NCBI GenBank assembly: GCA_965178295.1
Contig: CBCXTT010000002.1
Coordinates: forward strand, 170,925 to 234,924
Source: Alphaproteobacteria bacterium
GTDB taxonomy: Bacteria; Pseudomonadota; Alphaproteobacteria; UBA7879
Length of the DNA stretch: 64,000 nt
Direction of reading: 5' to 3'
Shown: piece after piece, positions 3,735 to 55,847 of the stretch
How the letters are laid out: every line of letters starts with the position of its first letter
Position numbering within the stretch: the stretch's first letter is position 1
The notes under the pieces: model-generated
Database searches by the model: none
What the model was told of the DNA's origin: nothing
The model's input: only the letters and a program-made list of their open reading frames with translations
Program-made: the position numbers and the translations under genes

Positions 3735-3759
3735 ATGTATAGTATATAATACTATACAT
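3735..3759. repeat. perfect 11-bp inverted repeat with 3-bp spacer (ATGTATAGTAT-ata-ATACTATACAT)
   Basis: Read directly from the sequence. It lies in the 1.1-kb AT-rich intergenic region between the lpdA stop and the smpB start. Confidence 0.6.
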
Positions 3760-4157
3760 GCAATGCTAGTCCAGTCCAGAAAAGTCTGAGAGCTCAGGAT
3801 TGTCTTACGTCTTGGAACCGCTTTCTGTCTCCTTTTTCCAACTTTAAGCGGGTTTCTTATATTGTAAGTGCCAGAGATTTCCTAAGATTTTATCAATTTT
3901 CTGCTTGTATCAACACGGCGTCCGCCAAACATCTTCTAAGCAGGGTGGTCCGTCTTTTGTGTTGTGCCCTGAGAATACCTGTTAATGGATCACCACAATA
4001 CAATGCAGCCCATACGAAGAAGTGCATATGTTGTTTGATTCTGTTCGGCTGCATCTCTGATTGCGCTTCTGCTCATCTAAAAACATAGCTAAAAATATAA
4101 AGCTTATGCTGCGTGTTCGACATGACGACTGGTGCTCTTCTTTATCAATAGCTATTT

Positions 4158-5572
4158 TTAAAAATGAATCGGTTGCGAAAAAGCGCCCAACGCTGCTTCT
4201 TTTAATGCCTCATTTGTTGTTGGATGTGGATGGCAGGTGCGTACAATATCTTCACTAGACGCTTCATATTCCGTGCCCAAAACAAATTCTGTAATAAGGG
4301 TTCCAGCGTTCGCACCAACAATATGTGCGCCCAAGATCCTATTTGTCTTTGCATGGGTCAAAATTTTAACAAAACCTTCCGTTAATCCGGTTGTTTTTGC
4401 ACGCGTATTTGCTCTGAACGGAAATTTCCCTACAATATAGGGTACATTTTCTTTCATCAGCCCTTGCTCTGTTTTCCCAACTGTTGCCACTTCAGGCATG
4501 GTATAAATCACACTAGGAATTGCCGCATAATTTACATGAGGGTTCTGCCCTGCCAAGTGCTCCATTAACGCAACGCCCTCTGCTTCTGCTCTATGTGCCA
4601 GCATAGGCCCAGGCACAACATCACCAATCGCATAAATCCCCATCATACTTGTGGTGTAATGTTCACCTACTTCAATACAGCCACGTGCGTTACATTTGAC
4701 ACCAACATTTTCAAGTCCAAAACCCTCTTTATACGGGCATCTCCCCGAAGCAACCAACGCAACATCAACATCTAGTGTGTCAGTTGACTGTCCATCTTTT
4801 GCATCCGCCAAGGATAATGAGACCCCTGTCTGATTCACCGTAGCCCCTATCACTTGTGTCCCCAGAACAAATGTCATCCCCTGAGTTTCCAAACTCTTTT
4901 TCAAAGAAACGCATACTTCTTGGTCCATCATAGACACAATCGTTTCATCAAATTCAATAATCGTTACATCTGCACCCAAACGCTGCCATACAGAACCTAA
5001 CTCTAGACCAATATACCCGCCACCAATGACAGCCATTTTTTGAGGAACTTCAGGTAACGATAAAGCCCCCGTCGACGACACTATACGCTTTTCATCAACG
5101 GCAACATCGGGAATACCAGCATTTTCAGCCCCCGTTGCAATCACAATGTTTCTCGATTCAATCGTATATTTTTTTCACCATGTCTCACAGTGATTTGATT
5201 AGGTGCCACAATTTCTGCATGACCCTGCATAAGGTGTACGTTATTTTTCTTCAATAAAAAGGAAATCCCCTGTGTCAGCTCCTCTACAACCTGATCTTTA
5301 AGGGCCAGCATTTTCTTGAGATCAAGGGATACATTGCTTACAACCACACCAAATTTATCTAGATAATGGGCTTCTACATATTTTTCTGAAGCATTCAATA
5401 GGACCTTTGATGGAATACATCCTATATTTAAGCACGTCCCCCCCAGTGTTGGGCGCTTATCAACACAGGCTACCTTAAAACCAAGTTGAGCACCTTTAAT
5501 GGCTGCCGCATAACCACCGGGTCCACCGCCTATTACAACAATATCAAATTTTTCCATAGTGCAGTCCCTCAT
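4158..5572 (-). CDS. lpdA: dihydrolipoyl dehydrogenase (E3), reading frame interrupted by a single frameshift in a poly-A tract
   Basis: Two overlapping ORFs. 5141..5572 is the N-terminal FAD-binding part (DIVVIGGGPGGYAAAIKGAQLG...GGTCLNIGCIPSK). 4158..5144 is the remainder (NAD-binding and dimerisation domains). They join within GTGAAAAAAATATAC, where the coding strand has a 7-nt A run. One extra A restores ...VRHGEKKYTIESRNIVIATGAEN... Confidence 0.85.
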
Positions 5573-10966: not shown

Positions 10967-12790
10967 CTATTCTGCCGAACGCTTGTGGCGTTTTCGCTCA
11001 TTGGGATCTAAATATCGCTTCCGCAAGCGAATCGTTGCAGGCGTAATTTCAACTAATTCATCATTTTCAATATAGGACAAAGCCTGTTCCAAAGTAAACT
11101 CTTTAGGCGGCGTCAAACGAATACCCTCATCCTTACCAGAAGCGCGAACATTTGAAAGTTTTTTTCCTTTAATAGGGTTCACATCTAAATCATTCTCACG
11201 ACTATGCTCACCAATCACCATACCTTCATATACCTCTACACCAGAATGAGTGAAAAGGATACCCCGATCTTCGAGATTCCATAAAGAATAAGCTGTTGTT
11301 TTACCTGGGCTATTAGAAATCAGAACACCCATGCGACGTCCATCAATATCGCCCCGATATAGCTCATATCCCGCAAATGAGCGATTCATAATACCTGTGC
11401 CACGCGTATCCGTTAGAAATTCGTTGCGATACCCAATCAGGCCCCGAGAAGGACAGCTAAATGTTAAGCGAATCTTATTGCCACCTATAGGTGCCATATC
11501 TGACATCTCTGCCTTACGCAGACCCAGTTTTTCAATTACAACGCCTGTATAGGGCTCATCCACATCTACCTGGACTATTTCTACGGGCTCAAGACGTTTC
11601 CCTGTGCTGTCTGTCTTAAAAAGAACCCTCGGGCGACTGATCGAAAGTTCAAAGCCTTCGCGGCGCATGGTCTCAATCAACACACCTAGCTGAAGCTCCC
11701 CACGACCGGATACTTCATAAGCATCCTTGTGCTCTGTTTCTTGGACACGAATAGAAATATTTCCCTCCATCTCAGCCATTAAGCGATCGCGAATCATACG
11801 TGAAGTCAATTTATTGCCCTCACGTCCCGCTAAGGGAGAGTCATTCACAGAAAATGTCATCGATAGCGTGGGTGGATCAATAGGAGTGGCCAACAGTGCA
11901 TTCTCACACTCAAGAGCGCATACAGTATCCGCTACTGTCGCGTCCTTTAAACCAGCAAAGGCAATAATCTGGCCTGTTACAGCTTCTTCAAGGGCAATTT
12001 TTTCAACCCCTCGTGCAATAAACATCTTAGTGAGACGTCCTTGCTCCTTAAAAGAGCCATCAGGATTCAGTGCCTTAATTGGCATATTAAGTTTGGCCAC
12101 ACCCTGCTCTATACGCCCTGTTAAGATACGCCCAACAAACGGGTCTGCCTCAAGAATCGTTGCAAGAACCTGAAATGGTCCTGCTCCATTGCCCTGAGGG
12201 GGAGCAACATATTCCACAATTTTCTCAAAAACAATTTTCATATTGTCCCGCGGGCCATCCAGGCTACTCGATGCCCACCCCTGCTTTGCAGAAGCATAAA
12301 TCTGCGGGAAATCAAGCTGGGAATCAGTTGCATTTAGTGCCACAAAAAGATCAAAAATCTCTTCTTCAACCGCATCACAACGAGCATCTGATTTATCGAC
12401 TTTATTAATTACCACAATCGGCTTCAACCCTTGTTCCAATGCCTTTGTTAAGACAAACTTTGTTTGTGGCATTGGCCCTTCTGCTGCATCAATTAAAATT
12501 AGGACACCATCGACCATACCCAAAATACGCTCAACTTCACCTCCAAAGTCCGCGTGTCCCGGGGTATCCACAATGTTAAGTTGATAGCCATTCCACTCAA
12601 TAGATGTCGTTTTGGCAAGAATAGTGATACCGCGCTCTTTCTCAATATCATTGGAATCCATCACCCGATGGTCAACATTTTTATGTGCTTTAAAGGTCCC
12701 ACTTTGTTGTAAAAGCTGATCAATGAGGGATGTTTTTCCATGGTCAACGTGCGCAATAATTGCAACGTTGCGAATGTTGTGCTGCTGCAT
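10967..12790 (-). CDS. typA: translational GTPase TypA/BipA
   Basis: 607 aa. The G domain reads IRNVAIIAHVDHGKTSLIDQLL...DTPGHADFGGEVER...NKVDK. EF-G-like domains follow. Confidence 0.95.
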   Translation of the reverse strand: MQQHNIRNVAIIAHVDHGKTSLIDQLLQQSGTFKAHKNVDHRVMDSNDIEKERGITILAKTTSIEWNGYQLNIVDTPGHADFGGEVERILGMVDGVLILIDAAEGPMPQTKFVLTKALEQGLKPIVVINKVDKSDARCDAVEEEIFDLFVALNATDSQLDFPQIYASAKQGWASSSLDGPRDNMKIVFEKIVEYVAPPQGNGAGPFQVLATILEADPFVGRILTGRIEQGVAKLNMPIKALNPDGSFKEQGRLTKMFIARGVEKIALEEAVTGQIIAFAGLKDATVADTVCALECENALLATPIDPPTLSMTFSVNDSPLAGREGNKLTSRMIRDRLMAEMEGNISIRVQETEHKDAYEVSGRGELQLGVLIETMRREGFELSISRPRVLFKTDSTGKRLEPVEIVQVDVDEPYTGVVIEKLGLRKAEMSDMAPIGGNKIRLTFSCPSRGLIGYRNEFLTDTRGTGIMNRSFAGYELYRGDIDGRRMGVLISNSPGKTTAYSLWNLEDRGILFTHSGVEVYEGMVIGEHSRENDLDVNPIKGKKLSNVRASGKDEGIRLTPPKEFTLEQALSYIENDELVEITPATIRLRKRYLDPNERKRHKRSAE

Positions 12791-14538
12791 GTTCTGTCTT
12801 CTCTTATCTTTCCAATAATGCTATTCAGGTATTGTCAGGCGCTCCCGCCAATCCGCTAGTATGACTACCACTGCTCTCAGAGGGCTATCAATTTCATTAA
12901 CAGGTAGTTTCTGGCTTATATCATACAAATACTCGATTGCAAACAAATCTCCTATGCGCATTTTACTCACAACACATCCTGCGATGAAACGGGGTTGATC
13001 AAAAATTCCATCGAGCGGGATAATCAACACACTATCTTGTATGGCACAAGAAAAAATTTTCTCGCAGTGTCTGCGCAATTTGAGAACAATATTGATCAAT
13101 CACAATCTTCAAATTCTTCTAAATTATCAGCTAATATATTAGCATTGTCCCAAATCATGATCCGCTATAGGCGTTTATTATTGTTTGCACAGATAACACA
13201 AGATAAGGTAGCAGTGTCTTGCGCTCCAGATGCAGTATCACAATTTTATGTTAAAGCCTTGCTGCACAAGCCTGGAAGATCTCAACAGTAGCGCTCCATA
13301 AAACAACAGATTGATATTTTGTACAACACCTATTGGCCGCTCATCAGGAAAGAGAGCCATCGAGATACAGAGCGCGGCGGGTTGCTCATAGTCCATACCT
13401 CCAAGTCTGTCGTGAAAAACCGACACAACGCCCCGTACTCAGATCATTATCTTTCTTTCTTACCAAACACTGTCGCCTGCCGCTTCTAATGCATTCTCCA
13501 CAGTGCATACATGCTTTCAAGAGAACGGGAGAGTGCTGCGCGTCTTTTGCAAGATCCACAGTTTCCAAAAACACCCCATCAGTGCGGTCCGGGAACATAA
13601 AAAATGGCTAACCCAAGATCACACCATCATCTCTTGTGTACATTGCGTGCTCTTTCCATATGTTTACATAGAGCTCAAAAAAGCCTAAAAATTCTTCTTC
13701 ATCCTCAAACGTGTGCTGTTATTGCCAATAACAATCACAAATATACTGTCCGCTACAAATATCAGGGACCAGAAGAGAAGAACAGGTGCAATAATAAGGG
13801 AGTGTTTTGGGCATTAGTGGTTGTATAGGTAATAGGTGGCGCCTAACTGGACACTTTGTGTTTTATCATACAACACGAAACGTTCGTTGATCAGGGCAAT
13901 AATGATCCGCAAGGAAAAATTGCGCACCTCACTGAGATGCGCGTAGTCGCGCGCGCACATCATCACAAGCATCCAGTAAAGGCATGTTATGCACACTGCT
14001 GTCTCTCTTTAAGTACAGTACTTGAAAATTGGGTAAAACCGATGCAAACAGAAGGAAAGTTAATCTACCAGTAAAAAGATGGGTTCCGGAAGAACCAACG
14101 GGTGCATATTACGCTCCCATCTCTCGGCATGTTCACATCTCTTAGCGCAAAAGAACTGCTTGCTTTATCTGGACGTCTTTTGGAGATGGCATAGCCATAG
14201 AGTATACGGCACAGTCAATTATCTCTACACAAACCACTCTTCCTATCCATCATTTAATCAATATTGGAATCACTGCATTGCTGCTCTATAGGAATGCGCA
14301 AGAAGAGAATCCTGAATTTGTGCTTCAGTTTAGTATGCGCTATTCCCGCTTCAAGCATGTCCCGTTCTTGATAATCTGTCCGCATTTTATCATATCAAGC
14401 GCTGTTTTCATACTACTCTAATTGCCTTTCATGCAATCGGCCTCTTTCTTTTTTTAAGCAGTCATATATTTCTGTGCTTGATTTGTCTTAAGAGATTCTG
14501 CAAGCTGGAGCTAAGGGCCCAAAGAGAGAAGATGTGTA

Positions 14539-15525
14539 ATGGATTTAAATGTACGTATGCGCCGCTTGCGTCATAATACACGGATGCGTGATATGATACG
14601 TCAAACCTATTTGCAGAAAGAGGATTTTATCCTTCCTCTTTTTGTGCAAGAAGGAAAAGACAAAAAAGTGCCTATTACAGCTATTCCCGGAGCATTTCGC
14701 TACACTGTTGATCGCTTGCCCGAAAAAATTTCCTCTCTTAAAACAAATGGTGTTCAAAATATTTTATTGTTCGGCATAACGAATGAAAAAGACGAACGCG
14801 GAGGTTCAAGTTTAGGAAATTCTAGCTTGATCGTCAAAGCAATAAAAACTATTAAAAAAGAAGATCCATCTTTATTTGTTATTTCTGATATATGCTTATG
14901 CAGCTACACAGACACAGGCCACTGTGGGATTATGAAAGAAATTGCTGGAGTTAAAGACGTTGATAACGACAAAACATTAAAGCTTATTGGAGAGCAAGCA
15001 CTCGCACATGCAGATGCGGGCGTTGACATGGTTGCGCCCAGCGGCATGATGGATGGGGCCGTTCTCGCCATCCGTCAAATACTCGATGCCCACCACATGA
15101 TCCATGTGCCTATAATGGGATACTCTATTAAATATGCTTCGCATATGTATAGTGCCTTCAGAGCTGCAACAGCCTGCGGCATCATAGAGGGCACTCGTTC
15201 CACTCATCAAGCAGATTTTTCAAACAAAGACGAGTGCCTTCGAGAAGCCATGCTCGATATAGAAGAGGGCGCAGATCTAATAATGGTCAAGCCAGCGCAT
15301 ACCTATTTGGATATTCTCACAAGTGTCAAACGAGAGTTTCCCTACATACCGCTAGTTGCATACCACACAAGTGGCGAGTGCGCTATGCTGACTGCTGCCA
15401 TTGAAAGGGGGTGGCTTTCCGAAGAGGCAATTTTTGAAGTTTTGGTGGCGATCAAGAGGGCTGGTGCCGATGTGATTATAAGCTATTTTTCAGAAGAAAT
15501 CATACGTTTTTTGAATGTGCAGTGA
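14539..15525 (+). CDS. hemB: porphobilinogen synthase (delta-aminolevulinic acid dehydratase)
   Basis: 328 aa. RMRRLR...LPLFV N-terminus and an active-site region typical of HemB. Confidence 0.95.
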   Translation: MDLNVRMRRLRHNTRMRDMIRQTYLQKEDFILPLFVQEGKDKKVPITAIPGAFRYTVDRLPEKISSLKTNGVQNILLFGITNEKDERGGSSLGNSSLIVKAIKTIKKEDPSLFVISDICLCSYTDTGHCGIMKEIAGVKDVDNDKTLKLIGEQALAHADAGVDMVAPSGMMDGAVLAIRQILDAHHMIHVPIMGYSIKYASHMYSAFRAATACGIIEGTRSTHQADFSNKDECLREAMLDIEEGADLIMVKPAHTYLDILTSVKREFPYIPLVAYHTSGECAMLTAAIERGWLSEEAIFEVLVAIKRAGADVIISYFSEEIIRFLNVQ

Positions 15526-23832: not shown

Positions 23833-24899
23833 TGTCGTTTACCGTACACCCACATGTAATGCATTCACTAAAGGCGCTGCCTATGAAAGAACATACCACA
23901 GATATTGCCATAATTGGTGCAGGACCGGTAGGGCTTTTTGCAATTTTTGCGTGTGGCATTCTAAAACTCAACTGTCATGTCATCGATACTCTGGATGAAG
24001 TTGGTGGCCAGTGTACTGCCTTGTACCCTGAAAAACCTATTTATGATATTCCTGCGTTCCCAGAAATTTTAGCGGGAGACTTAATTGATCATTTAAAACA
24101 ACAAGCAGCGCCCTTCAATCCGACATTCCACTTAGGACAACAGGTCACACATATTTCTTCAGCGAACAAGGGTTGGAAAATCACAACATCTCAAGACATT
24201 ATCATTCACACAAAGGCCATTATTATTGCTGCTGGTGTGGGCGCCTTTGGACCCAATCGTCCGCCCCTAAAAAACTTAGAGTGTTACGAAAAATAAAAGT
24301 GTGTTTTATTAATATAAAAAACAAAGAAAAACTGTCGGGAAAAAAAATTGTAATTGTGGGTGGGGGTGATTCGGCAATAGACTGGGCCTTAAGTCTGTCG
24401 GATGTTGCAGATCATTTGCACGTTGTACACCGTCGCTCCAAATTCCGCGCAGCTCCAGATAGCGTTGACAAACTACATAAACTATGCGCACAAGGAAAAA
24501 TTACACTCGAAGTGCCCTATCAACTATATTGGACTCAAGGGAGACAACGCTGGAAATATAACAGAGGTTTGCATCCAAAATTTAGACAAAAATACAAAAA
24601 CATTACAAGCAGATGTGCTGCTACCATTTTTTGGCTTGTCTACGAATCTTGGCCCTATTGCAGAATGGGGCCTCCACTTAGATAAAAAAAATATTTCTGT
24701 TGAGCCAACAACATGCGCAACATCCACACAAGGCATCTTTGCAATTGGCGATATTGCAACATATCCAAATAAATTAAAGCTGATTGTCACTGGATTTTCC
24801 GAGGCTGCATCAGCAGCGCATTCAGCAAGAGCGCATATCTATCCAGATCAGATATTTCACTTTGAATATTCTACAACGCATGGTAAGCCGGCAGCATAA
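23832..24899 (+). pseudogene. fpr: ferredoxin--NADP(+) reductase (thioredoxin-reductase-like FNR), interrupted by two frameshifts
   Basis: Three overlapping ORFs: 23832..24296 (frame 0), 24173..24685 (frame 2) and 24402..24899 (frame 0). The sensible parts concatenate to FNR-like ...IAIIGAGPVGLFA...LECYE / KIKVCFINIKNKEKLSGKKIVIVGGGDSAIDWAL...EVPYQL / IGLKGDNAGN...GIFAIGDIATYPNKLKLIVTGFSEA.... The first shift is at the GAAAAATAAAAG run near 24288-24296. The second is near CTATATTGG around 24525-24535. Likely true start MKEH at 23883. Confidence 0.8.
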
Positions 24900-24900
24900 A

Positions 24901-25803
24901 CTAAAATACAAGCTCCGACCCTTTATAGAGCACCTCATATGCTTCAGCTGTGTATGCACCGTTACGCTCGTGTACTACTAACCCTGGATCTATCTTCAGT
25001 GGTTCCTTTGCCCCCTTGCGCGCTCGCACAATAGTGCGCTTTGAGGACACACCTTTTTTTGGCCAGAGGAGAAAAATTTCTATGCCGCCAAAGTGATATT
25101 TTTTTAAAAAAAATATCACTTCATCGAGGATAGCTGTAGGATAGATTAACGTTAAATATCCACGCGTCCTTAACATCACTTGACAGAATTTTATCCACTG
25201 CTCTAGAGACACATTGACCATTGAACGTGCTATACGCCGACTGTGTGTTTTTGCATGCGTTGCATCATAAAAATAGGGGGGATTTGTAACGATCTGATCA
25301 AAGCTATCCAGTGCAGTAGGGCTATTAATATAAGAATCTGCCACATTATGCTGAAAAAAAGCAATATACAAGTCATTGTGAGTCGCATTAAGAATCGCTA
25401 TATCTAAAAGATCGTTTTGTATCTCAACACCCACAATATCTAAGCACGCCAATCTATGCTTCAATAGAAGCGCAAGAGTTCCAACACCGCACCCCAAATC
25501 AAGAATGCGGTCCATGGGATGAGCCATGACTGATGCTGCTAAAAACACCGTATCACTCCCCGCACGATACCCATCTATGGGTTGTTGCACCGTAACTTCC
25601 CCACCTAAAAAATTTGATACATCATTCATACGTCCTACTTTTTGATAGATTTTTCTGCATTTTCCCCTATGATCAGAGGGTGTTCTTACTATATCGGTAA
25701 ATACACTAAAGGAAAAGGATGTCTGCAAGGAAGTGTCTATACATAAAAACCCTGCCTGTGCTTGAAAATCTTCAGTCCATGCTCGCACAGGATTTACAAG
25801 CAA
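24901..25803 (-). CDS. class I SAM-dependent N6-adenine methyltransferase (NPPY motif), TrmN6/YfiC-like
   Basis: Contains LDLGCGVGTLALLL (SAM binding) and VTNPPYF (N6-adenine methyltransferase motif IV). Likely true start at MNDVSNFLGG, about 25629, because the upstream part overlaps the divergent ispB start. Confidence 0.7.
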   Translation of the reverse strand: MLVNPVRAWTEDFQAQAGFLCIDTSLQTSFSFSVFTDIVRTPSDHRGKCRKIYQKVGRMNDVSNFLGGEVTVQQPIDGYRAGSDTVFLAASVMAHPMDRILDLGCGVGTLALLLKHRLACLDIVGVEIQNDLLDIAILNATHNDLYIAFFQHNVADSYINSPTALDSFDQIVTNPPYFYDATHAKTHSRRIARSMVNVSLEQWIKFCQVMLRTRGYLTLIYPTAILDEVIFFLKKYHFGGIEIFLLWPKKGVSSKRTIVRARKGAKEPLKIDPGLVVHERNGAYTAEAYEVLYKGSELVF

Positions 25804-26733
25804 TGGATGTCCTCATGCAACATCAAATGGATGCACGCGCACCACTTATAGGCACAATTACGGGCAGACTTATCCAAAGCGGGGGAAAGCGCCTTCGCCC
25901 TATGCTGACAATGGCGGCTGCGCATCACTATCAATACAAAGGAACACGGCATATCTCTCTTGCTGCATGTATCGAATTTATTCATACTGCTACTTTATTG
26001 CATGATGATGTTGTGGACGATAGCCAGAAGCGTCGTGGTCAAAAAACCGCAAACATCATATGGGGAAACAAACCGCCCATTCTCGTTGGAGATTTCTTGT
26101 TTTACACAAGCCTTTGGGCTCATTATCCAAGATGGAGACCGAGATATTCTACGTGTTCTTTCTAACGCCTCAACACGTATTACAGAGGGGGAAATCCTCC
26201 AACTTACAGCGGATGAGTTCGCAACAAAAGAAGATAACTATTGGGCAATTATTTCTTCAAAAAACAGGCGGCTTTATTTGAATCTGCTCTTCATGTGGGA
26301 GCGATTATTGGTGGTGCTAAGAAAGAGGAACAACAAGCTTTTAGTACATATGGTCATCATTTGGGGTGTATTTTTCAACTTTCAGATGATTTTCTAGACT
26401 ATTTTGGAACAAAAAATTCCCTAGGGAAAAATGCAGGGGATGATTTTTACGAAGGCAAGATTACACTTCCAGCGTTGCTAGCATATAAGGCTGGAACCGA
26501 TGATGAAAAGAGCTTCTGGACCAGAATTTTTGGAAAAACGCATGTACGCACAGCGCTTGATTTTACCCGCGCGCGGATCCCTCATGATCAAGCATCATGT
26601 GCCCGAGAAAATGCATCACAACATCACCGAGATCGCTCAAAAAGCACTGCAAGCGATTGTTGCTCTAGAGCCATCTCCCTATAAAGAAATCCTCATCCAT
26701 CTCCCAACTTATTGTAGAAACAGGAGTGCCTAG
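25719..26733 (+). pseudogene. ispB: octaprenyl/all-trans-polyprenyl diphosphate synthase, fragmented by at least three frameshifts
   Basis: Four overlapping ORFs in frames 0/1/0/1: 25719..26165, 25960..26397, 26241..26684 and 26500..26733. The pieces read ...GGKRLRPMLT...LLHDDVVDDSQKRRG (first DDxxD), ...GDFLF / TQAFGLIIQDGDRDILRVLSNAS...ISSK / AALFESALHVGAIIGG...FQLSDDFLDY (second DDxxD)... / ...KHHVPEK...[14 protein letters not shown]. Shift 1 is at TTGTTTT near 26100. Shift 2 is at the A6 run near 26255. Shift 3 is near the GCGCGCGG run around 26575. Likely start MLAQ at 25779. Confidence 0.8.
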
Positions 26734-28805
26734 CCTTCTAGCGCACCAAAAATCAAGCACTTGGTGAAACAAAGACCGCACACGCCCCAAGAGATGTAAG
26801 CGTGTCTGCGCAACTTTTATATCATCAACTATCACGACACTTTCATCTAAAAAGCGATTAATACACACACTGATCTGCACGAGTTTAGAGAGCTGTCCAG
26901 AAAGTGTGCATGCCATATAAACAGGTCCAGAGAGTTGCACGGCTAAATCTTTTTCGGCACTGTCACGCAATGCATTATCGCACATACCCGTACCATCAAA
27001 ACACACATTCTGCTTTTTTTCTATCTGGTTCAAGATATTAGAAACCCGTTTGTATGCTGTCAACACACCCACGCCTTCTGCGGTTTCAAAGAATTTTTTA
27101 GCACAGAAAGTGCGTTGGTCATAACATAAAAGTCCACCATTTCTGAGTGATTTAATACACTCAATATATGGTCATAACGGTAGCCTTTATCTTTCATATA
27201 CACATGAAAACGATCTTGTAAAAATTTCCACAGAAACGCTAACGTCTTAGCCTTCTCTTGTTTTCCAGGCACATTAAGCTGATCATAGGCAAAATTCATG
27301 GTTTGCTTTATATCAAGAGACCATTTATTCTCAATCAGCAAACGTAGACACCCTAAGGCCGAACGACGCAAGGCAAAAGGATCTTTAGAACTAGTAGGCA
27401 TGATCCCAACACTGAAAAATGCAATCAACGTATCCAATTTATCGGCAAGCGCCAACACCCGGCTTGACGGTGCGTTTGGACAAACATCGCTCGGTCCTTT
27501 AGGAAAATAATGTTCGCGAATTGCAAGAGCCACATTGTCAGATTTCCCCTGTGCAATTGCATAATAGCATCCTGTGATACCTTGCAATTCTGGAAACTCT
27601 CCAACCATGGCCGTTGCAAGATCTGCCTTGCATAAACGAGCGGCTTCTTCCGCATCTTCAAGTTCTGGAGCTATATTTTGAACCAGCCTTTCCAAGCGCG
27701 TGACCTTTTCTAGCATCGTTCCTAACTGAGCATGAAAGGCTTGTTGTTCTAAACATGCACTCCAAGTGTCAAGGGTGCGCTTTTGATCTTGCTTCCAAAA
27801 AAATGAGGCGTCGGCAAGGCGTGCGGTAAGTGTTTTTTCATTTCCCCGGATAATTTGTTCCCCGCCATCCAGCGCTACCATATTAGAGACGAAGAAAAAA
27901 TAGGGTGCAAGTCGGCCATTCTTTTTTGTTGCAAAACACTTTTGATGTGTCCGCATACTCGTCACCAGAATCTCAGCTGGAAAAGACAAGTATTCTTGTG
28001 AAAAATGCCCCCTGAATATCACGGGCCACTCAACTAGCCCTACCACCTCTTCCAACAATTGTTCATCAAGAACAACGTCAAGATTTGCAGACGCCGCATG
28101 CGCTTCCAACTGGATCCTCACATCATTCCGACGTGCATCTTGATCAATTATCACATATGCAGAGGCGAGTTGTGTTTTATAGGCGTCAAAAGTCCGTACG
28201 GCAAAGGATTTTGGTGCCAGAAAACGATGCCCCATTGTTATATCACCCACAGTAACATGGGGATGCGGCGCATCAAGTGGAATGATTTCTCCATCAAAAA
28301 CAGCCAGCAGTGATTTCAGAGGGCGTACCCATTTAAAACTCGACGCCCCCCAGCGCATGGATTTAGGCCACTTAAAAGAGCGCATCAACCCAAACAATAC
28401 CTCTGAGAGCAAAGCGCTAGTAGCAATACCACCCTGGACACTGGGAGCGAAAAAAAATGTCCCCTTTTTTGGAAGCTCTCGCGTCTTTAGGTCATCCATG
28501 GTCAGGGCCGTTGACGATAAAAAACCCTGAATCGCTGCATCAGATGCCTTAACACTTGGTCCTTTGAGTTCTATATATTTCTTGGGCTGCATTGTTGGCA
28601 AACCTACAACATGTGCAATGAGCCGCCGCGGCGTCGTATAAATATTCATGCCATCATACGGTAGATTATATGAATCCAAAGCCGAGACAAGCCTTTCTTT
28701 AAGCTGAGCCCTTGCTCCAGGTTGCATACGTGCGGGCATTTCCTCAGACAATATCTCCATAAAAAACTCAGCCATCTCGATCCTCGTGATCCTTCCAAAG
28801 CGCAC
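26665..28805 (-). CDS. glyS: glycine--tRNA ligase beta subunit, interrupted by one frameshift near an A6 run
   Basis: ORF 27060..28805 (581 aa, GlyS N-terminal and central regions) plus ORF 26665..27072 (135 aa, C-terminal [11 protein letters not shown]... region). They overlap by 13 nt. The join lies at or next to GTGCTAAAAAATTC (27090-27098 on the + strand). Likely true start [14 protein letters not shown] at 28775, forming an ATGGCTGA overlap with the glyQ stop. Confidence 0.88.
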
Positions 28806-29801: not shown

Positions 29802-31817
29802 GTGACAGAAAAAAAGCAGGAAGAGCATAAGCCTTATATACCAGGTAGCACGAGATATCCAGAACTTACTATTAAAGCGATTGTTCTAGGTTCTCTGCTC
29901 GCCATACTTTTGGGCGCATCTAATGCATACCTAGGCCTTAAAATTGGGCAAACCATTACAGCATGTATCCCTGCCGCCGTTGCCTCTATGGCCATTCTGC
30001 GCCTTTTCCGTGAATCTAATATCTTAGAGAATAATATGGTGCAAACGATGGCTTCCGCAGGTGAAGTGATGGCAGCCGCTTCTATTTTTACTTTACCCGC
30101 TCTCATCATGATTGGGTACTGGAAAAATTTTTCATACTTTGAAACAGCCTCCATCACACTTGTTGGTGGCTTTATTGGTATATTGTTCTCTATACCCCTT
30201 AGACGTGCATTGATCGTTGAAAAAAAACTTACCTATCCCGAAGGTGTCGCAACAGCCCATGTACTAGCAGCGGGTGATAATCACGGAGCAGATATTGGTA
30301 TCCTTGTCAAATCTGGTATTTTTTCGGCAATCATTCAGTTTTGCCAGTCTGGCCTACAGATCTTAACGGATAGTGTGAGCCGTTGGTTTGTTGTAAAAAA
30401 TACGGTTTTTGGTTTTGGAAGCGGACTATCAGCCGCCATGATTGGTGCTGGGTATATTGTTGGTATTCGTGTTGGGTTAGGTCTCGCGACGGGGGCCCTC
30501 ATCATGTATGGCATCACTATTCCCACCTACAGCACAATCATCGGTATACCAGCAGAAGCTGCTAATGCACATGACGCCGCGCTGATGATAAAAATCCCTC
30601 TACGCTACATGGGTGTAGGGGCTATGCTTGTGGGAGGTCTTGCCGCCCTATTTTCTGTTCTAGCGCCTATTAAAACGGGCATTATGCATGCATTTTCTGC
30701 TTTCAAGAATGCGGGTAAAGAATCAAAAATTATGCGCACAGATCAAGATATTCCCATGAAATACGTTTTGATAGGCACAGTAGCCCTCTTTATTCCGGTT
30801 GCGTTCTTAATCCATCACGTACTCTTAGAACAAGGCCTCCCTATATCTTCAATCACATATGCGCTTGCAATAAGTGCGAGCATTATTGGCACTTTTATTA
30901 TTGGTTTTTTAACTGCCTCTATCTCTGGATATTTATCTGGATTAGTGGGAAATTCTGCAACTCCCCTCTCCGGTATTTTAATTGCCTCCGTCCTGCTTAT
31001 TGCGATTATTTTGATGGCAATTATTGGTAGCGAGGTTAATTTCCAAGAAAATGCAGAAGCAGCCCTCGGTGTCACGGCAGTTGTTATTCTCATCACCGCC
31101 ATTGTTGCTAGCATTGGCGCTGTAAGCTGTGATAATCTTCAGGATTTAAAATCTGGCTACATTCTAGGAGCCACGCCCTGGAAGCAACAAACAGGTCTGT
31201 TTATTGGAGTGATCGTCAGTGCAATTGTCATCACACCTGTGCTTAAAGTTTTGTTTGAGGCCTATGGTATGGGCGGCATTTTCCCACGGGAGGGCATGGA
31301 TCCAACAAAGAATCTAGCCGCCCCACAAGCCGTACTGATTGCAACTGTTGCAAAAGGTATGGTTGCTCAAGCGCTGCCTTATGGCATGATTTCTCTGGGC
31401 GGACTTATATCATGCGCTGTGATTATATTTAATAAAATAATGGAAAAGTTTGGACAACAAGGTACACCAGCTTTAGCTGTTGCATTAGGTATATATCTTC
31501 CTCTAGATATGTCTATCCCATTATTTATTGGCGGTCTCTTGAGTTTTTTAGCTATGCGTAAGCGTGATACGCTCCCATCAAAACAAGCGCAATCCGCCTA
31601 TAGTGCAGGCGTTCTCTTTGCTTCAGGCGCTATCGCAGGTGAAGCCTTGATCGGCATATTCTTGGCAGTCCCTTTTGCAGCACTACAAAGCACAACCATA
31701 TTTCGTTTTGTTCCAACGTGCATAACCCCCTATGTGGATAGCATGTCTCTCGTGGTCATTGGAATACTTGGTTGGATGCTTTATCGAGCCGGTATCGGTA
31801 AACGATCAAACAGATAG
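29802..31817 (+). CDS. oligopeptide transporter, OPT superfamily
   Basis: 671 aa, about 16 TM segments. N-terminal PGSTRYPELTIKAIVLGSLLAILLGASNAYLGLKIGQT is typical of the bacterial OPT family. GTG start preceded by AGAGGGGAAAG. Confidence 0.85.
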   Translation: MTEKKQEEHKPYIPGSTRYPELTIKAIVLGSLLAILLGASNAYLGLKIGQTITACIPAAVASMAILRLFRESNILENNMVQTMASAGEVMAAASIFTLPALIMIGYWKNFSYFETASITLVGGFIGILFSIPLRRALIVEKKLTYPEGVATAHVLAAGDNHGADIGILVKSGIFSAIIQFCQSGLQILTDSVSRWFVVKNTVFGFGSGLSAAMIGAGYIVGIRVGLGLATGALIMYGITIPTYSTIIGIPAEAANAHDAALMIKIPLRYMGVGAMLVGGLAALFSVLAPIKTGIMHAFSAFKNAGKESKIMRTDQDIPMKYVLIGTVALFIPVAFLIHHVLLEQGLPISSITYALAISASIIGTFIIGFLTASISGYLSGLVGNSATPLSGILIASVLLIAIILMAIIGSEVNFQENAEAALGVTAVVILITAIVASIGAVSCDNLQDLKSGYILGATPWKQQTGLFIGVIVSAIVITPVLKVLFEAYGMGGIFPREGMDPTKNLAAPQAVLIATVAKGMVAQALPYGMISLGGLISCAVIIFNKIMEKFGQQGTPALAVALGIYLPLDMSIPLFIGGLLSFLAMRKRDTLPSKQAQSAYSAGVLFASGAIAGEALIGIFLAVPFAALQSTTIFRFVPTCITPYVDSMSLVVIGILGWMLYRAGIGKRSNR

Positions 31818-32386
31818 CTTGCACATTAAATCTACTATCCTATAAAAGATCTGATCAATATCTATGGGTCGTATATCTGAAATGGTGCTCAATATATGAG
31901 TCAAACCTCTATGCAGAGCGGTCTCTTGGGTTTTTAGCTATGCGTAAACGCTCGCATCCCATTGGGAAGCGCTCTTATCTATGAGACATTCCAAGCCTTC
32001 GGCACATATAGAAGCAGATTTTAACGCACAGAAAGAAGTACATGCTGCTCCCTTAACACTTATGACGATCTAGCAGAGGCTGCGTCATAAGGATTGCAGC
32101 GACCAAGGTTAACTTTGTACACAAAAGTACAGCAAAAAATTTATAGGCAATGCGCTGCATAAGCTCCGTGGAGCACGTAACCAAATCAGAGTGTTGTGTG
32201 CCCACTTCCTGTGAGACTCTCTATATTATCGTATGCGGCTTGTTAGTAAAAGAGACGAGCGGTATATTATAAGCGCTTCACCTCTGGACAGCCCATCTCC
32301 CATGAGGGCCGCTCATGAACTTTACGAGTATCCCATCTCTGTATTTCCCAAAAAAAAAATATATATGCAATCTTTGGACATGGAAA

Positions 32387-33505
32387 TCAAGGTACACAAT
32401 AAACAGCCGAAGAAGGAATATAGCGATGACAAATAGCCTCTGCAAAACCCTTTTCCTGCAGCCTCAAAAGACTATGGTTTATTTTCTCTTTATACGGACT
32501 CCCCTTTGGCAAGGAAAAAGAGACTTCGTCAATCGCAAGCCGTATATCAGAGACTTTAAGGGCGAAATTTTTATGCTCTTGCACTTCTTGCGCAAGAGAT
32601 ACGTAGTCATCGATTACAACATCCACCTCCTGAGTGTGAAGCGCCTCTATAGCCGCATCTAATGTTTCGTAAGAGATCACTTTTGCAGTTGATCGCTTCG
32701 CTATTACAGCATTCTCTGAACCCCGTACAACCCCCGAGACCATATCCTGTAAATCCTCAATGTTTGAAATTGTCTGATTATTGTAGCTATACAAGGTAGA
32801 AGATAAAGCACTTGTAATCATACCAAAAAAACCCGATACAAAAACGAGTGATACAATAAGCCAAAAAGCCATAAAAACTCGCGCTTGGGGCCCTTCTGGT
32901 CTGTATAAAACTTTGATTTGAATAAGGCGCGCAAACATAAACCACATACTGTCGCCAATACCTCGAAAATACCTTGTGCTGATTTCAGGAGCATGCCATC
33001 TGTAAAAAAACCAATACACATGCGCAGCAACAATAAAGAAAATAGCAATAATAAAGAAACCGACCTCACCCAATTTTTTCATAAATATGTGTAATGCATC
33101 TAAAAAACCTAAATGAATCTCATGAAACGCCACACCTATTTGCTCAATAAAAAAAGGGCGCGTAAAGTCCAAGCGTGACAGCCTATCTCGTGTAGCAGAA
33201 ACAGGGCCAAGAACGAGATCAATGTGACCGTTTTCAAGAGACTCCAGAGCTGAGGAAATATTAGAACCAAGAGATGTAAGGGTATAGGACAATTGATTGT
33301 CCTGCGCAATTTCGTCCCATATGTCAATTGCAAATCCAGAGGGAATGTCTGAAGAAAGAAAAGAAAACGGTTTATGGTCAACGTATCCAACACGCACATC
33401 AATAGCACACAGAAAAGTGGGCCAGAGAAAAATAATGATAAATCGCTTGATCACGTTATTATGCCTCCCTTCTTTCATTTGATCTTCCTTAAAAAAATCT
33501 GTCAA
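32387..33505 (-). CDS. ionotropic glutamate receptor-like ligand-gated channel (GluR0-type: periplasmic SBP lobe 1 - M1 - pore loop - M2 - SBP lobe 2)
   Basis: 372 aa. Signal/TM segment first, then an SBP_bac_3-like lobe (VRVGYVDHKPFSF...GHIDLVLGPVSATRDRLSRLDFTRPF). Next comes TM VGFFIIAIFFIVAAHVYWFF, then a pore-helix-like FRGIGDSMWFMFARLIQ (compare iGluR SLWFSLGAFMQQG), then TM VFMAFWLIVSLVFVSGFFGMITSALSS (compare iGluR M3 ...ISSYTANLAAFLT). A second SBP lobe follows (…VDVVIDDYVSLAQEV...SFSLPKGSPYKEKINHSLLRLQEKG). No TVGYG K+ filter and no M4. Probable true start at MKEGRHNN. Confidence 0.7.
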   Translation of the reverse strand: MTDFFKEDQMKEGRHNNVIKRFIIIFLWPTFLCAIDVRVGYVDHKPFSFLSSDIPSGFAIDIWDEIAQDNQLSYTLTSLGSNISSALESLENGHIDLVLGPVSATRDRLSRLDFTRPFFIEQIGVAFHEIHLGFLDALHIFMKKLGEVGFFIIAIFFIVAAHVYWFFYRWHAPEISTRYFRGIGDSMWFMFARLIQIKVLYRPEGPQARVFMAFWLIVSLVFVSGFFGMITSALSSTLYSYNNQTISNIEDLQDMVSGVVRGSENAVIAKRSTAKVISYETLDAAIEALHTQEVDVVIDDYVSLAQEVQEHKNFALKVSDIRLAIDEVSFSLPKGSPYKEKINHSLLRLQEKGFAEAICHRYIPSSAVYCVP

Positions 33506-41071: not shown

Positions 41072-42597
41072 ACCTCCTTAACGCTTCATAAAAAGTTGCA
41101 TGAAGCTTTTCTCAAAAACATATTTCAAAATAGGAGTTAGTATAGACAGAAACTTCTTACTTTGCAAATTCTGCCTCCTCAGCGTTTCTTATTGGTTAAT
41201 TTTGATGTAAAAAATGGTTGCTAATTTATTCACAAGTACTATATTATATAGAAATATTGAATATATGAAAAATATGTTTGGAAACACCCCGAAATCACCC
41301 TCCTATTGTTACACAAAGCTGATGGGAGATTGGGATTATGCAGCAGCTATGCTCGCTGTTATTACGATTTCTGCTCTTTGGAAGCTCAATCCCACATTGA
41401 CTATCTGCGCTCAGTTATGGATCAAAGCCGTGCGACAGTGTGAGTGCACGAACAATACCTCAACATCAACAAAATGGATATTGTCCAGGCACAAATCCTC
41501 TCCAACAGTCAAATGATAAGCGTAGTAAAAATGACAGAAGTGGTGGCATAGAGGAAGATATGGGATCAGTATGGGGCACATATTGTAAGAAAACTGCGTC
41601 TCTCCGAGGGCTGCACAAGCGATGGAAGCACTACGTTGAGCAGGAGACGTCATCTCACAGAGAGATCAGATGACGGGATTACCATTTTCTACAACATTGA
41701 TGATACAATGCCTAGGATTTCTCACCCTTCTTGAGAGTATAGGGTGCGCGTCTACCCAAACACTTCCAAAAGTACGCATCCAAACCCGCTACAGGGTGTG
41801 TAGTATCCACAAATTTGTGCTATTGAGCGCTCTCATATACGTCATACACGCATCCTCCCCCCTACACAAGAAATTCCATGCGGCATAGAGAGCTAAAAAA
41901 TGTAGCGGTTTGAGGTCATCTGTCGGGAAAACATGACTCTGGTACGCCCAACATGCTACTCTAGATAGAGGTCCAAAAATTCCAACAACAGTCAGACTAC
42001 ATATGCGTCATATGCGATTATCTCTTCATCCCACCCCGCACTTATACAGGTATACCACGAAGCCGATCCCAGAGAAAATTGGCGGTTCCTCTCTTATATG
42101 GCAAGTGTGACGAAAAGTCGCCAAATCAATCAGAAGAGATAGTAATATATAAAATATACAGTAATAAAAATCATAACTGCTTTCTTGGGAGATCCATTGG
42201 AGAAGATGCATATCCGGCCTACTCTTCAGTGCTGCACAAAAAGGTGACAATTAGTGGTGTAGAAAAAATGATAAAAGAAACGCTAGTACACATTCTAGCC
42301 TCAATGCGTGATACGACTAGAGGGGTAAAATACACTACTAAAAATCTTGTCTTTTTTTATCACTATTGTTCTGAACACGAGTATTAGTTAAGTTGCACTC
42401 TACGCGCTCTCCCTTCCTCTCACATCTCTTTTAACCCTGCAACAGAGTTCAGAATCTGAGACTCTTTCAGCTTCTAACGCTGATGATACTTTGGTAATCC
42501 TGAAGCAAGAGAAGCTCTGCATTAATTAATATAAAATAGTGTTTCTTCCGTGCCACTTTGAAGAAAAAGAACAGACAAGAAACCAGCGAAAAAACAT

Positions 42598-42651
42598 TAC
42601 TATGCAAGATAGCGCAACTATGCAAGATAGCGCAACTATGCAAGATAGCGC
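42598..42651. repeat. 18-bp tandem repeat x3 (ACTATGCAAGATAGCGCA), in-frame within a small ORF (MQDSAT x3)
   Basis: Three perfect 18-bp units at 42598-42651, then a degenerate fourth (CAAATACAAGATTGT). Confidence 0.9.
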
Positions 42652-42763
42652 ACAAATACAAGATTGTATGAATGCTCTTGAAAATCGTGTTTTTATACTT
42701 ACACAAGCCGCCTCTAGTAATAACGGCGCTCTACGTGTGCACCAAATGTGGTCTCTGCAGTAA
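42601..42763 (+). CDS. hypothetical small protein (about 53 aa) with N-terminal MQDSAT hexapeptide repeats
   Basis: The first canonical ATG lies inside the repeat. The ORF reads MQDSATMQDSATMQDSAQIQDCMNALENRVFILTQAASSNNGALRVHQMWSLQ*. There is no obvious SD. A second mini-ORF starting ATGCAAGAT (MQDAGAARR...) lies at 44292..44420 and is followed by a hairpin plus T-run. Confidence 0.2.
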
Positions 42764-44435
42764 AAATATGCAGAAAATTAGTAGAGAAATTTCCTGACTT
42801 ATGGCTCAGGTATGAGATAGTATTCACGTGCGTCCGTTTCTGGTGTGCAAAAATTTATATCCACGGCACGTCTGAACTGTGCACTAAGAAGTGATGAGAC
42901 GAATGCGTCGTCACGCACAGCACAAAAAAGCTTCTATCGCACTGCACATGTTGGAACTTCCCTTGGACAAAGATACATAAATTTCATAGATTGATCTGTT
43001 AAAATTCTGTATATAGCGCGGCCTTAACGTTGCAATTCTGTGCTGATTACATAAAGGTGTAGATTGAATTGTCTCAGACTCATAGAAGTAGTGGAAACAC
43101 AGAGGAAATGCTCTTCAGCAGTAGAGATTCGGCCTCCAATCCTGACCTAGAGATGCGGATAAGAGATCCTTCCAACGTTCGAGGGCGGCTGATGTGCTCT
43201 ATGCATAGGTATACACAGCACACTCACAATCAAAAAGATTAGCCATTAGGCATGAGGAATGCAGCATGCACAGTGAGCGTCAGGGGCAATCTGTGTGAAC
43301 ACTGCAGCAACTTCCAGAGGTGTGATCGAAAATCAGTTGGGATTGCCAGAAATGGCTGGTCACATAAAGCATCGAATCAAAAACATGACATCAAACATAG
43401 TACAAAAGACAATATACGCAATATATCCATTACTCTCTATAATCACAGTGTCAATACTGCATTGCAAATACGAGCTTGATAAGACTGTGGACAATAATAG
43501 TGCCATGCAATAGCGTGGAAAGTGCAAAAAGTAGAGATATAGAAAAAAGCATCATCATATCAAAAGGAGCTCTAGATATGAGTGATTATAGCATTAATCT
43601 TTCTGGACAAATCGTTTAGGTGAATATGCAACTAACACTCATGTATAAAGCGCACGCAATAATAGGCGTACACAGCACTGAGTAATAAATATATTCCCTG
43701 TCAGGCAATCAGGGTAGAAATATTTTTGTCCACGTCACACAGGTGAGAGTCTACATCCAAGCGTCGTAGAGTTACCATAAGGACCTGGATTACTATCGTC
43801 CAAAAAAGTCTTTTTACTGCACACAGAGCACAGGGGTTTTTCAGATTTTGTTACACAGTGTTTCACACTAAATTACTACAGAATAGCAACTGCTGTACAA
43901 GTGGAAAACACCACACAAAGTTGTCCGATTTTGGTCAGCAGTCTTCATATCGATAACCGTTGCGGCGATATTGACTATGATGGAATATTTAGATGCTCAT
44001 TAGATCCAAAAAATTCCTGAAATTACACTATCCGGAGCAGATAGTGGATCAATCTATGGGCACTGAGATAGAGTGCACTCTTATTATAAACGCAGGTTTG
44101 AGTGCACCGACAACAGGGGGGTGGAAGAAGGAACCATCAAGCTTAAACAATTTAAATTCCAAAAATCACATCTTCTCAATTGCAAGTAGCGGTTAGTTCT
44201 CGAACATACTGCATGGTATTTCCATAGCATGGTATTGCGTACAATATTGCGTATATTGCATAGTGATTTCACCTTTAACAGAATAAATGCCATGCAAGAT
44301 GCAGGAGCCGCGCGCAGAATGCATCCACTGAATCCGTCTCAAGATAATGGAGCGATACAGAAGAAGGCACATAAGATAAGAATTGACGATGCACAACATC
44401 CTGAAGTTAGTACATCATAAAACACAACCCCCCCT

Positions 44436-44460
44436 CTCTCTACGCTGAGAGTACTTTTTC
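44436..44460 (+). terminator. putative rho-independent terminator (CTCTC-tacgct-GAGAG + TACTTTTTC) on + strand
   Basis: Hairpin directly followed by a T-run on the + strand. It overlaps the gltX stop on the opposite strand. It sits 16 nt after the stop of the + strand mini-ORF 44292..44420. Confidence 0.3.
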
Positions 44461-45783: not shown

Positions 45784-46262
45784 ACATCCTCAGTATTTAA
45801 ACCACCCATATGGCATAACAATTTCCAGGCCTCTGTGTCAATAGGCATCACAGAAAGGCGCGACTGGCGCACCAAAGCAATATCCTTCAAGTCTGGAGCG
45901 GCTTTTATAGACGCCAAGGTAACAGGCTGCGGCATCGGGACAATCGGCTCAACAGCTACTAGACAAAATTTAGGCTCTATTGGGTCTGGATAAGCCTCAC
46001 GCACAATCTTCAGCACCCCCACAATGCGCTTGTCACTCAAAGAGTGATAAAAAAAAGCTTGGTCCCCCACCGTCATTTTCCGCATATTTCCCTGAGCCTG
46101 GTAATTGCGCACACCATCCCATTCACCAACGCCTTCCTTAACTTGATCCGACCACGACCAACGCCTCGGTTCCGATTTCAATAACCAATAATACAATATA
46201 CAGTACATCTCCGATAATGCATCCAAAGAATATCGGAGATTTGCCTCTATAGCAATATTCAC
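45780..46262 (-). CDS. EVE (PUA-like) domain protein
   Basis: YWLLKSEPRRWSWSDQVKEGVGEWDGVRNYQAQGNMRKMTVGDQAFFYHS is the EVE-domain signature. Likely start MYCILYYW at about 46205. Confidence 0.75.
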   Translation of the reverse strand: MNIAIEANLRYSLDALSEMYCILYYWLLKSEPRRWSWSDQVKEGVGEWDGVRNYQAQGNMRKMTVGDQAFFYHSLSDKRIVGVLKIVREAYPDPIEPKFCLVAVEPIVPMPQPVTLASIKAAPDLKDIALVRQSRLSVMPIDTEAWKLLCHMGGLNTEDV

Positions 46263-47065
46263 ATCAGAACAATATCAAGAGACATGTTGTGCGCCCTTCG
46301 CCCATATATCTAGTTCAGACAAGCACCGCGTCATCCGCCATACAACGTTACTGAACGGCATAGCTCACCAATAGACACTCTTTCGCTAGACACTAAGATA
46401 TTATACCTGTCATCCAATTCACATACGATTCGCTCAAAGAATTATATCTTGTGACGCTCACAGATGGAAAAAGGAAAGATAAACACTCTAGGCAATATAA
46501 TGGTTGATGTAATCATTACGCATATTTTAGCAATTGCGGCTCACAGCATGTGCGCAAATCTTGCGATGCGCCCTATTGTTGTCTGTTCGAGTAATGCCTC
46601 TATCTATGATCGTTATGCCCCTTGCTTCCCCCCTGGGGTGGTTGGTGATTGCGCGCCATAGAGAAGAGCGCACTGCGACGTAGAAAAAACGGCCCTAGTA
46701 GGGAAGGACGGCGTAGGACAGACAGATAACAAGATAATAAAGCTGCCCTTTTGTAGGCAGAACGCATTCGAAAAATTTTCATCCAAAAAATAATGGGGGT
46801 TTGGTCAAAATAGCTGCCTATAGCTATCCTGCCACATGCAAGCGCATATACTTACAAGAGTGCAGGCCACCGATGTTTAGGCTTGCAATAACCCAAGGTT
46901 GACGCTACTGTGGGTGGCCCCAGTCATCGTGAACAAATTATCGTATGACAACAGGCATGAGGCCGAAGAGACCAATGCCGATGCATTCTTGAGAGATACC
47001 AGGAATATACAGTACGCATTTTCCCTTCATCTCGAAATTTAAAAAAGATGCACTAACATTTTTTC

Positions 47066-47082
47066 ATACACTTTCAGTGTAT
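47066..47082. promoter_or_regulatory. 17-bp palindrome ATACACT-TTC-AGTGTAT upstream of metal ABC transporter operon (candidate Zur/Mur/MntR-type operator)
   Basis: Perfect 7-3-7 inverted repeat, about 60-80 nt upstream of the first gene of the znuCBA-like operon, in a divergent promoter region. Confidence 0.4.
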
Positions 47083-47143
47083 ACGTGTGTAAAATGTTTT
47101 GAAGTTTGTATGATTGAGATAAAAAGTAGATGTCACCTTTTTT

Positions 47144-47932
47144 TTGGAATATTTGGGCGCGATTGGGCGCTGTTTTGCTTCTCATAATATTACTGGTATT
47201 AGCCGTATGGTGGGCGCTTTGAGCAAACCGTCAACCATTGTTTGGGACAATGTAACTATAGTCTATAGAAAACATGTCGCGCTCTCTCAAGCATGTGGCT
47301 CCATAAAGCCAGGATCCTTAACAGCCGTGATTGGTCCAAATGGGGGTGGAAAAACAACATTTGTTCGTGCGATTATGGGCCAGGTTCCAATCAAAAGTGG
47401 GTACATAAAATTTCAAGATGGTAAAAAACTTATTCCAGCATATCTTCCTCAAAAATCGTCTTTAGATGCAACATTTCCAATGACACTTAGAGAAGTTATT
47501 GGAATGGGACTTTGTAGTCAGATCGGGGCATTTAGGGCATTTTCATCTGAAGCGCACAAGAAAATCGCTCAAGTCATTCAAGACGCGGGTTTGACAGGAC
47601 TAGAAAAGAGATTTGCAGCAGATTTGTCTGGAGGGCAGTTTCAGCGTATGCTCTTTGCGCGACTTATGCTACAAGAAAAACCAATTATTATTTTAGATGA
47701 GCCTTTTGTGGGTATTGACTCAAAAACACGCAAGAAGCTTGTACAACTTATCTTAAAGTGGCACACACAAGGCAAGACAATAATTGTGGTGCTTCATGAG
47801 TTGAATTTAGTGCGGCAATATTTTCCGGACGTTGTGCTCGTTGGCCGAAAAATTGTTGGGTGGGGAAAAACAGACCAAGTTCTAACCCATGAAAATATGG
47901 AATTAGCTTTTCAGAATCTATTGGAGATTTAG
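47144..47932 (+). CDS. znuC: metal (Zn2+/Mn2+) ABC transporter ATP-binding protein
   Basis: Walker A GPNGGGKTT, ABC signature LSGGQFQRMLFARLM, Walker B IIILDEP. The exact start is uncertain because the track uses an alternative start. Confidence 0.85.
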   Translation: MEYLGAIGRCFASHNITGISRMVGALSKPSTIVWDNVTIVYRKHVALSQACGSIKPGSLTAVIGPNGGGKTTFVRAIMGQVPIKSGYIKFQDGKKLIPAYLPQKSSLDATFPMTLREVIGMGLCSQIGAFRAFSSEAHKKIAQVIQDAGLTGLEKRFAADLSGGQFQRMLFARLMLQEKPIIILDEPFVGIDSKTRKKLVQLILKWHTQGKTIIVVLHELNLVRQYFPDVVLVGRKIVGWGKTDQVLTHENMELAFQNLLEI

Positions 47933-55753: not shown

Positions 55754-55847
55754 CTCAATTCTCCCCCTTCATTTTACTACAATATTGTTTTAACAAAAAC
55801 TTAAAACTTGACCGTGAGGGGCGGATAGTATTTAAGAATAAGAGGAT

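Follow-up and report, generated by a model that had tools for sequence, protein, structure and literature searches.

The ispB-type gene found in four pieces in this window (the whole 64,000-nt stretch of DNA analysed) most probably does not owe its fragmentation to biology. With a probability of about 0.75, the breaks would be consensus errors left uncorrected where the assembly is locally weak, an origin in sequencing or assembly that we infer from the pattern of lesions. The lesions are one-base changes that crowd into a short stretch shared with neighbouring genes and carry no signatures of decay. The source of the DNA is, by the identity of its ValS (72% to one relative but ~54% to Rhodospirillales such as Nisaea and Azospirillum), to be placed as a deeply branching alphaproteobacterium, and the G+C content of the window is 42.8%.

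The interrupted gene and its joined product

The gene occupies 25719–26733 on the forward strand and would encode a trans-polyprenyl diphosphate synthase, as judged by alignment, by family and structure matches and by the gene order shared with two relatives, the contig L037 and L038. In both of these ispB is intact and lies among the same neighbours, the local arrangement being methyltransferase, ispB and glyS–glyQ as it is here. As given, the gene lacks a single uninterrupted reading frame. Four overlapping ORFs on the forward strand (25719–26165, 25960–26397, 26241–26684 and 26500–26733) run in frames 0, 1, 0 and 1, and when joined at the points of shift they give a product of 336–337 aa. 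This product is 64% and 62% identical over the full length to the intact proteins P0001 (336 aa) and P0002 (342 aa), both taken from public read-set assemblies, and ~46–48% identical to ordinary alphaproteobacterial octaprenyl and decaprenyl diphosphate synthases. The sequence-only reading had already recognized a complete IspB spread over four ORFs in two alternating frames, and this is borne out. The start it proposed, at 25779, has to be moved upstream to 25719, as the N-terminus MSARK...LENLQSMLAQDL encoded from there aligns with the N-termini of the relatives.

Structure comparison aligns residues 16–331 of the joined product to residues 12–328 of 3MZV (E = 5e-83), and the matches also include 4JXN and, at E = 3e-67, 3WJK. 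The family domain PF00348 is present in all 120 of the homologues listed for it. Both aspartate-rich motifs are intact and conform to DDxxD, as had been stated from the sequence: the first (FARM) reads LLHDDVVDD at 25995–26021 and the second (SARM) FQLSDDFLD at 26373–26399, both on the forward strand. In this family, long chains go with residues that are small and non-aromatic four and five positions ahead of the first motif. The sequence there, IHT-A-T-L-L-H-DD, places Ala at −5 and Thr at −4, both of them small, as the long-chain rule demands. The best-scoring NCBIfam model is the octaprenyl model NF008140, but its score of 262 bits stays below the equivalog cut-off of 412, so the chain length of the product (C40, C45 or C50) is left unassigned. 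The gene is predicted to be an ordinary orthologue of the long-chain IspB/DdsA type.

The lesions were placed by a codon-by-codon comparison with the two relatives and by frameshift-aware alignment. The latter, which had been proposed as a check, gave a full-length match to intact IspB with shifts at three places only, and these are the three places named from the sequence alone. The first (26097–26107) contains the run TTGTTTT at 26097–26103, where an extra T (T3 to T4 at 26100–26103) splits GDFLF from TQAF. The relatives read GGT GAT TTT CTN TTY ACC CAR, and the window reads TTG TTT T AC ACA A. The second place, the A6 region at 26257–26271, reads TCAAAAAACAGGCGG and holds two +1 insertions, A5 to A6 at 26259–26264 and G to GG at 26267–26268; the stretch has 26 nt in the window and 24 nt in both relatives. 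Dropping one A and one G restores SKTAALFE, including its K–T pair, which sits in highly conserved columns of the homologue alignment. A single −1 deletion at this place was considered and set aside, as it would break the K–T motif and add one residue. The sequence-only reading was thus right about the position of the middle shift, but the shift is better read as two insertions, which makes four in ispB and not three. The third place (26566–26580) has an extra base in the CG repeat CGCGCGCGG, and dropping it restores DFTRA-G-SLMIKHH at a length equal to that of the relatives. The gene is best read as holding four one-base insertions at three places.

Broken neighbours and the clustering of lesions

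Upstream of ispB, a gene for a thioredoxin-reductase-like ferredoxin-NADP reductase (FNR-like; 23883–24899, forward strand) is also interrupted; it is 78% identical to its counterpart in L037 once the frame is followed. It leaves its frame at 24294–24310 and regains it at ~24527. Two of its lesions lie at 24285–24312, namely an extra T at 24294, which turns A9 into A5-T-A4, and an extra T at ~24310; removing both gives EKKSVFYNIKNKEK where the relative has EKNSVFYYIKNKEK. The other is an extra base in CTATATTGG (24521–24534), at ~24527, which returns translation to the first frame. Three one-base insertions are the best reading of this gene. The methyltransferase gene that separates it from ispB (24904–25629, reverse strand) is intact and falls inside the lesion-free interval 24530–26099.

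On the other side, glyS, for the beta subunit of glycine–tRNA ligase (26730–28775, reverse strand), converges with ispB, the native glyS stop overlapping the ispB stop in CTAG as it does in the relatives. Its C-terminal domain is interrupted twice, both lesions being confined to the last ~17% of the gene. The first (27087–27104) is in a coding-strand A6 run (T6 at 27094–27099 on the forward strand) and may be −1 or +2. The second (26742–26757) is an extra T, T4 to T5 on the coding strand (A5 at 26748–26752 on the forward strand), which abolishes the native ending ...LDFGALEG and its stop, so that the ORF runs on to 26665; GlyS of the relatives ends in ...LNFD(A/V)LEG and a stop. The gene of the partner subunit, glyQ, is intact, at 82–83% identity.

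The only lesion beyond this cluster is ~19 kb away in lpdA, the gene for dihydrolipoyl dehydrogenase (4158–5572, reverse strand), which lies downstream of intact sucA and sucB. It is split into ORFs of 143 aa and 328 aa, which cover positions 1–127 and 137–461 of TIGR01350 and when joined span 1–461 of 461 at 537 bits. The shift (5163–5179) is in a coding-strand A7 run (T7 at 5169–5175 on the forward strand) and may again be −1 or +2.

The census is thus three lesions in the FNR-like gene, four in ispB and two in glyS, with nine or ten one-base lesions lying inside 24294–27099 (2.8 kb), and a single one in lpdA. Eight lesions can be oriented, and every one of them is a +1 insertion, a direction that is judged from relatives only 60–78% identical in protein sequence; the remaining two lie in A runs and may be either −1 or +2. 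After correction of the frame, the four broken genes are free of stop codons and of longer deletions that would break the frame.

The rest of the window is in good order. Frameshift-aware alignment against the proteins of a relative (contigs L037 and L039) detected no shift in 18 other genes, ~24 kb of coding sequence. In profile comparison, the other large ORFs match their families over the full length, these being sucA, sucB, typA, ampG, hemB, smpB, gltX, an SLT protein, a symporter of the SDF family (sodium:dicarboxylate), SURF1, ctaE, a family-5 solute-binding protein, MFS transporters and the atp genes. L037 has an identical gene order (addA, addB, murU-like, amgK-like, tsaE, FNR-like reductase, methyltransferase, ispB, glyS, glyQ and an OPT transporter) with every gene intact. 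When events were placed uniformly in a simulation, at least six of seven fell within 2.9 kb of the 64 kb in 5e-6 of trials, and the cluster is therefore not the outcome of uniform placement. A repeat or an anomaly of composition was looked for as its cause within 24.3–27.1 kb and ruled out, none being found there.

Error, decay and other explanations

The sequence-only reading had ended in a fork, in which either a truly inactivated ispB would mean quinone auxotrophy or the region is error-ridden. The second branch is favoured because the FNR-like gene and glyS are broken within the same 2.8 kb, all orientable lesions are +1 and the joined proteins show no relaxed constraint; auxotrophy is the less likely of the two. 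We found no independent copy of the species with which the lesions could be compared. Among GTDB representatives it was not found, the loci there reaching at most 48% identity; look-ups of contigs by exact protein with GlyQ and the methyltransferase returned none; a look-up of protein clusters for 10 proteins of the window gave 10 singletons of 10; and of two scans of metagenome DNA, one was without a match and the other found only glyQ of other species, at 67–74% identity. The choice between artefact and decay consequently rests on the pattern of the lesions.

If the lesions are artefacts, ispB would be a functional, ordinary orthologue fragmented by errors of one base each, for the most part insertions that are not real. 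A short stretch with poor support at ~24.29–27.10 kb would have corrupted the FNR-like gene and glyS as well, and lpdA would carry one further error of the same kind. A dip in coverage, an unpolished patch or a poor join between reads are candidate local causes. This reading is favoured by lesions that are shared by neighbouring genes, clustered and, where they can be oriented, all +1; by the lack of relaxed constraint; by the breaking of core functions, including glyS beside an intact glyQ; and by the different look of the real decay in comM, described later in the text. Errors of assembly are expected to be one-base indels, locally concentrated and blind to essentiality, and what is found are such indels in glyS, lpdA, ispB and the FNR-like gene with the 18 compared genes clean. 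However, runs of A8 to A10, T10, G8 and C8 are in frame within intact ORFs elsewhere in the window. The assembly is thus not generally poor at homopolymers, general miscalling of such runs is ruled out as a sufficient cause, and some cause particular to this stretch has to be supposed. In an assembly made from short reads only, indel errors in such number would also be unusual.

The same long runs in frame speak for a generally accurate assembly and so count towards the principal alternative, that the lesions are real and recent. Here a host-restricted, gene-losing alphaproteobacterium would have a dead ispB and a dead FNR-like gene, a GlyS cut in its C-terminal domain and one lost copy of lpdA, and it would need another prenyl synthase or imported quinone or prenyl chains. 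We regard this as improbable, though far from negligible. Several lesions per gene are what dead genes build up, the glyS lesions touch the end of the gene only, and by our own count it is only mildly unlikely (~0.03) for three of the four broken genes to be near neighbours. Bacteria often carry more than one lpdA.

Gene loss in the genome also makes real pseudogenes plausible. Compared with its relative the genome is clearly losing genes, those missing being UPF0102, BON, comM, SBP/Gly-transporter, NUDIX and a gene for a 185-aa protein, and an ORF-free tract of 3.4 kb at 41072–44439 points the same way. In L039, UPF0102, BON and comM (~2.5 kb) stand between rsmI and a rhodanese gene. The window has instead, at 55753–56378, 625 nt with a tRNA-Cys (55848–55921) and a relic of comM at 56043–56237 on the reverse strand, which reads ISRPLKDIIDFTVQIP followed by a stop and V..., retains ~65 codons and has several in-frame stops. 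This relic is the only gene of the window that has clearly decayed, and it is quite unlike the lesions of the ispB cluster. Searches with tblastn found no remnant of the NUDIX gene of the relatives in the gap at 46262–47144, of their SBP_bac_3/Gly_transporter gene and a 352-aa gene in the gap at 49691–50292, or of the 185-aa gene in the gap at 31817–32387. The 3.4-kb tract has no ORF longer than 102 aa and no coding signal, and one ORF from it gave no Pfam match.

Some other features of the window were recorded. Three copies of an 18-nt tandem unit lie at 42599–42664, inside the 3.4-kb tract. Long stretches with short ORFs only are also found at 12790–14539 (1.7 kb), three ORFs of which had no match in Pfam, and at 3016–4158 (1.1 kb). 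A PopZ-like protein (53015–53836, reverse strand) has 273 aa where that of the relative has 393, and only the two ends align. A solute-binding protein of 372 aa (32387–33505, reverse strand) matches its family at residues 45–124 and 238–362, which suggests either an insertion of ~110 residues or an extended N-terminus.

The spectrum of the lesions does not fit well with real loss. In 151 curated pseudogenes of symbiotic leaf-nodule Burkholderia, 300 of the 696 indels were insertions, and of the 396 deletions only 131 removed a single nucleotide (PMC6054270). At these rates the chance that eight of eight lesions are insertions is ~0.43^8 = 0.001. A natural pseudogene is expected to show a mixed spectrum, with deletions at least as frequent as insertions, multi-base events and nonsense mutations, and the lesions here have no such mixture.

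Nor does either ispB or the C-terminal domain of GlyS show a sign of relaxed constraint, although the power of these measures is limited for a very young pseudogene. At columns conserved to at least 95%, the joined IspB has seven departures found in the window only, mostly V, M or L to I, against one to four in the relatives; at columns conserved to at least 85% it has nine, against 6–11. The intact valS, treated as a control by the same measure, gave 11 versus 3 and 16 versus 13 at the two thresholds, an asymmetry that is equal or larger. For GlyS the ratio of divergence in the out-of-frame C-terminal part to that in the N-terminal part is 1.4 here and 1.7 between relatives. Changes at conserved residues are thus not in excess in either protein.

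The functions affected argue in the same direction. glyS is essential and its partner glyQ is strongly constrained; E. coli cannot do without ispB, and the same apparently holds for A. baumannii (PMC7519801). Quinone would still be needed in this organism, as the window retains ctaE, SURF1, sucAB and the ATP synthase. In its most specific form the alternative would have a respiring, host-restricted, deeply branching alphaproteobacterium that very recently lost the sole quinone side-chain synthase it had, along with the FNR-like reductase and the GlyS C-terminal domain, while keeping cytochrome oxidase, 2-oxoglutarate dehydrogenase and ATP synthase. A host or partner would then have to supply it with polyprenyl chains or ubiquinone, and in that form we consider it slightly less credible still than real loss in general.

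Recoding would leave the genes alive and the sequence correct, with expression achieved by transcriptional slippage or ribosomal frameshifting at A or T runs. Poly-A and poly-T runs are known recoding sites (PMC3711429), and several of the lesions do lie in suitable contexts, the lpdA site and the first glyS shift on A_AAA_AAT and the first ispB shift and second glyS shift on TTT_T. But four corrections would be required in ispB and three in the FNR-like gene, the sequence at several sites is not slippery (CGCGCGG, CTATATT and the T inside an A run) and the runs are short, 4–7 nt. Furthermore, no conserved slippery site was found in the orthologues of L037 and L038: there is no conserved recoding signal, since the ORFs of these relatives are uninterrupted and use different codons at every site. 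We give recoding almost no credence. The A_AAA_AAT context is in frame both in lpdA (5169–5175) and at the first shift of glyS (27094–27099), and TTT_T is shared by ispB (26100–26103) and the second shift of glyS (26748–26752); these shared contexts are taken as places where one-base slips or miscalls happen and not as recoding signals.

The contig might also be bacterial DNA integrated in the nuclear genome of a host and decaying there neutrally. The absence of the species from the GTDB representatives searched would fit with a contig inside a eukaryote assembly. However, ~48 of the 52 genes are intact, including ORFs of 880–1060 aa, nonsense mutations are lacking and the lesions sit in a cluster instead of being scattered. 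This is very unlikely, if a shade less so than recoding.

The distinction has practical consequences. If local sequence errors are the cause, then neither 24.3–27.1 kb nor the lpdA site ought to be annotated as pseudogenic, and a metabolic reconstruction should retain IspB, the FNR-like reductase, GlyS and LpdA. Were the lesions real, the organism would rely on supply from outside or on a further prenyl synthase encoded in another part of its genome, and it would be a rare respiring bacterium without quinone side-chain synthesis of its own, pointing to dependence on a host.

Comparison with known systems

In insect endosymbionts, frameshifted genes are rescued at poly(A) tracts by transcriptional slippage. 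Three sites in the window resemble these in lying in A runs of the coding strand, but the runs are A5 to A7, shorter than the tracts of the endosymbionts, and most of the sites fall outside A runs.

The young pseudogenes of leaf-nodule Burkholderia (PMC6054270) resemble the window in having several frameshifts per gene and in belonging to a genome that is losing genes. Set against the young pseudogenes of host-restricted bacteria, the lesions of the window are one-base only and, where orientable, all insertions; stops, longer deletions and relaxed constraint are lacking, and a subunit of an aminoacyl-tRNA synthetase is among the genes affected.

Other parallels come from errors in sequence, such as the indels that break up genes in draft assemblies (PMC12007338 is an example) and frameshifted singleton genes checked against their homologues (PMC3711429). 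There, as here, single-base indels split conserved and even essential genes whose homologues elsewhere are intact. The window differs in that nearly all of its lesions fall in one 2.8-kb stretch, long homopolymers outside it being correct.

As an enzyme, the joined product is at home among the long-chain IspB/DdsA synthases (PF00348), represented by the decaprenyl diphosphate synthase of Rhodobacter capsulatus (3MZV) and by E. coli IspB (3WJK). Unlike theirs, the frame of ispB in the window is broken at three places, yet the joined product aligns with these enzymes end to end and shares with them both DDxxD motifs, GKRLRP, KT, GDDxxEGK and the small residues before the first motif.
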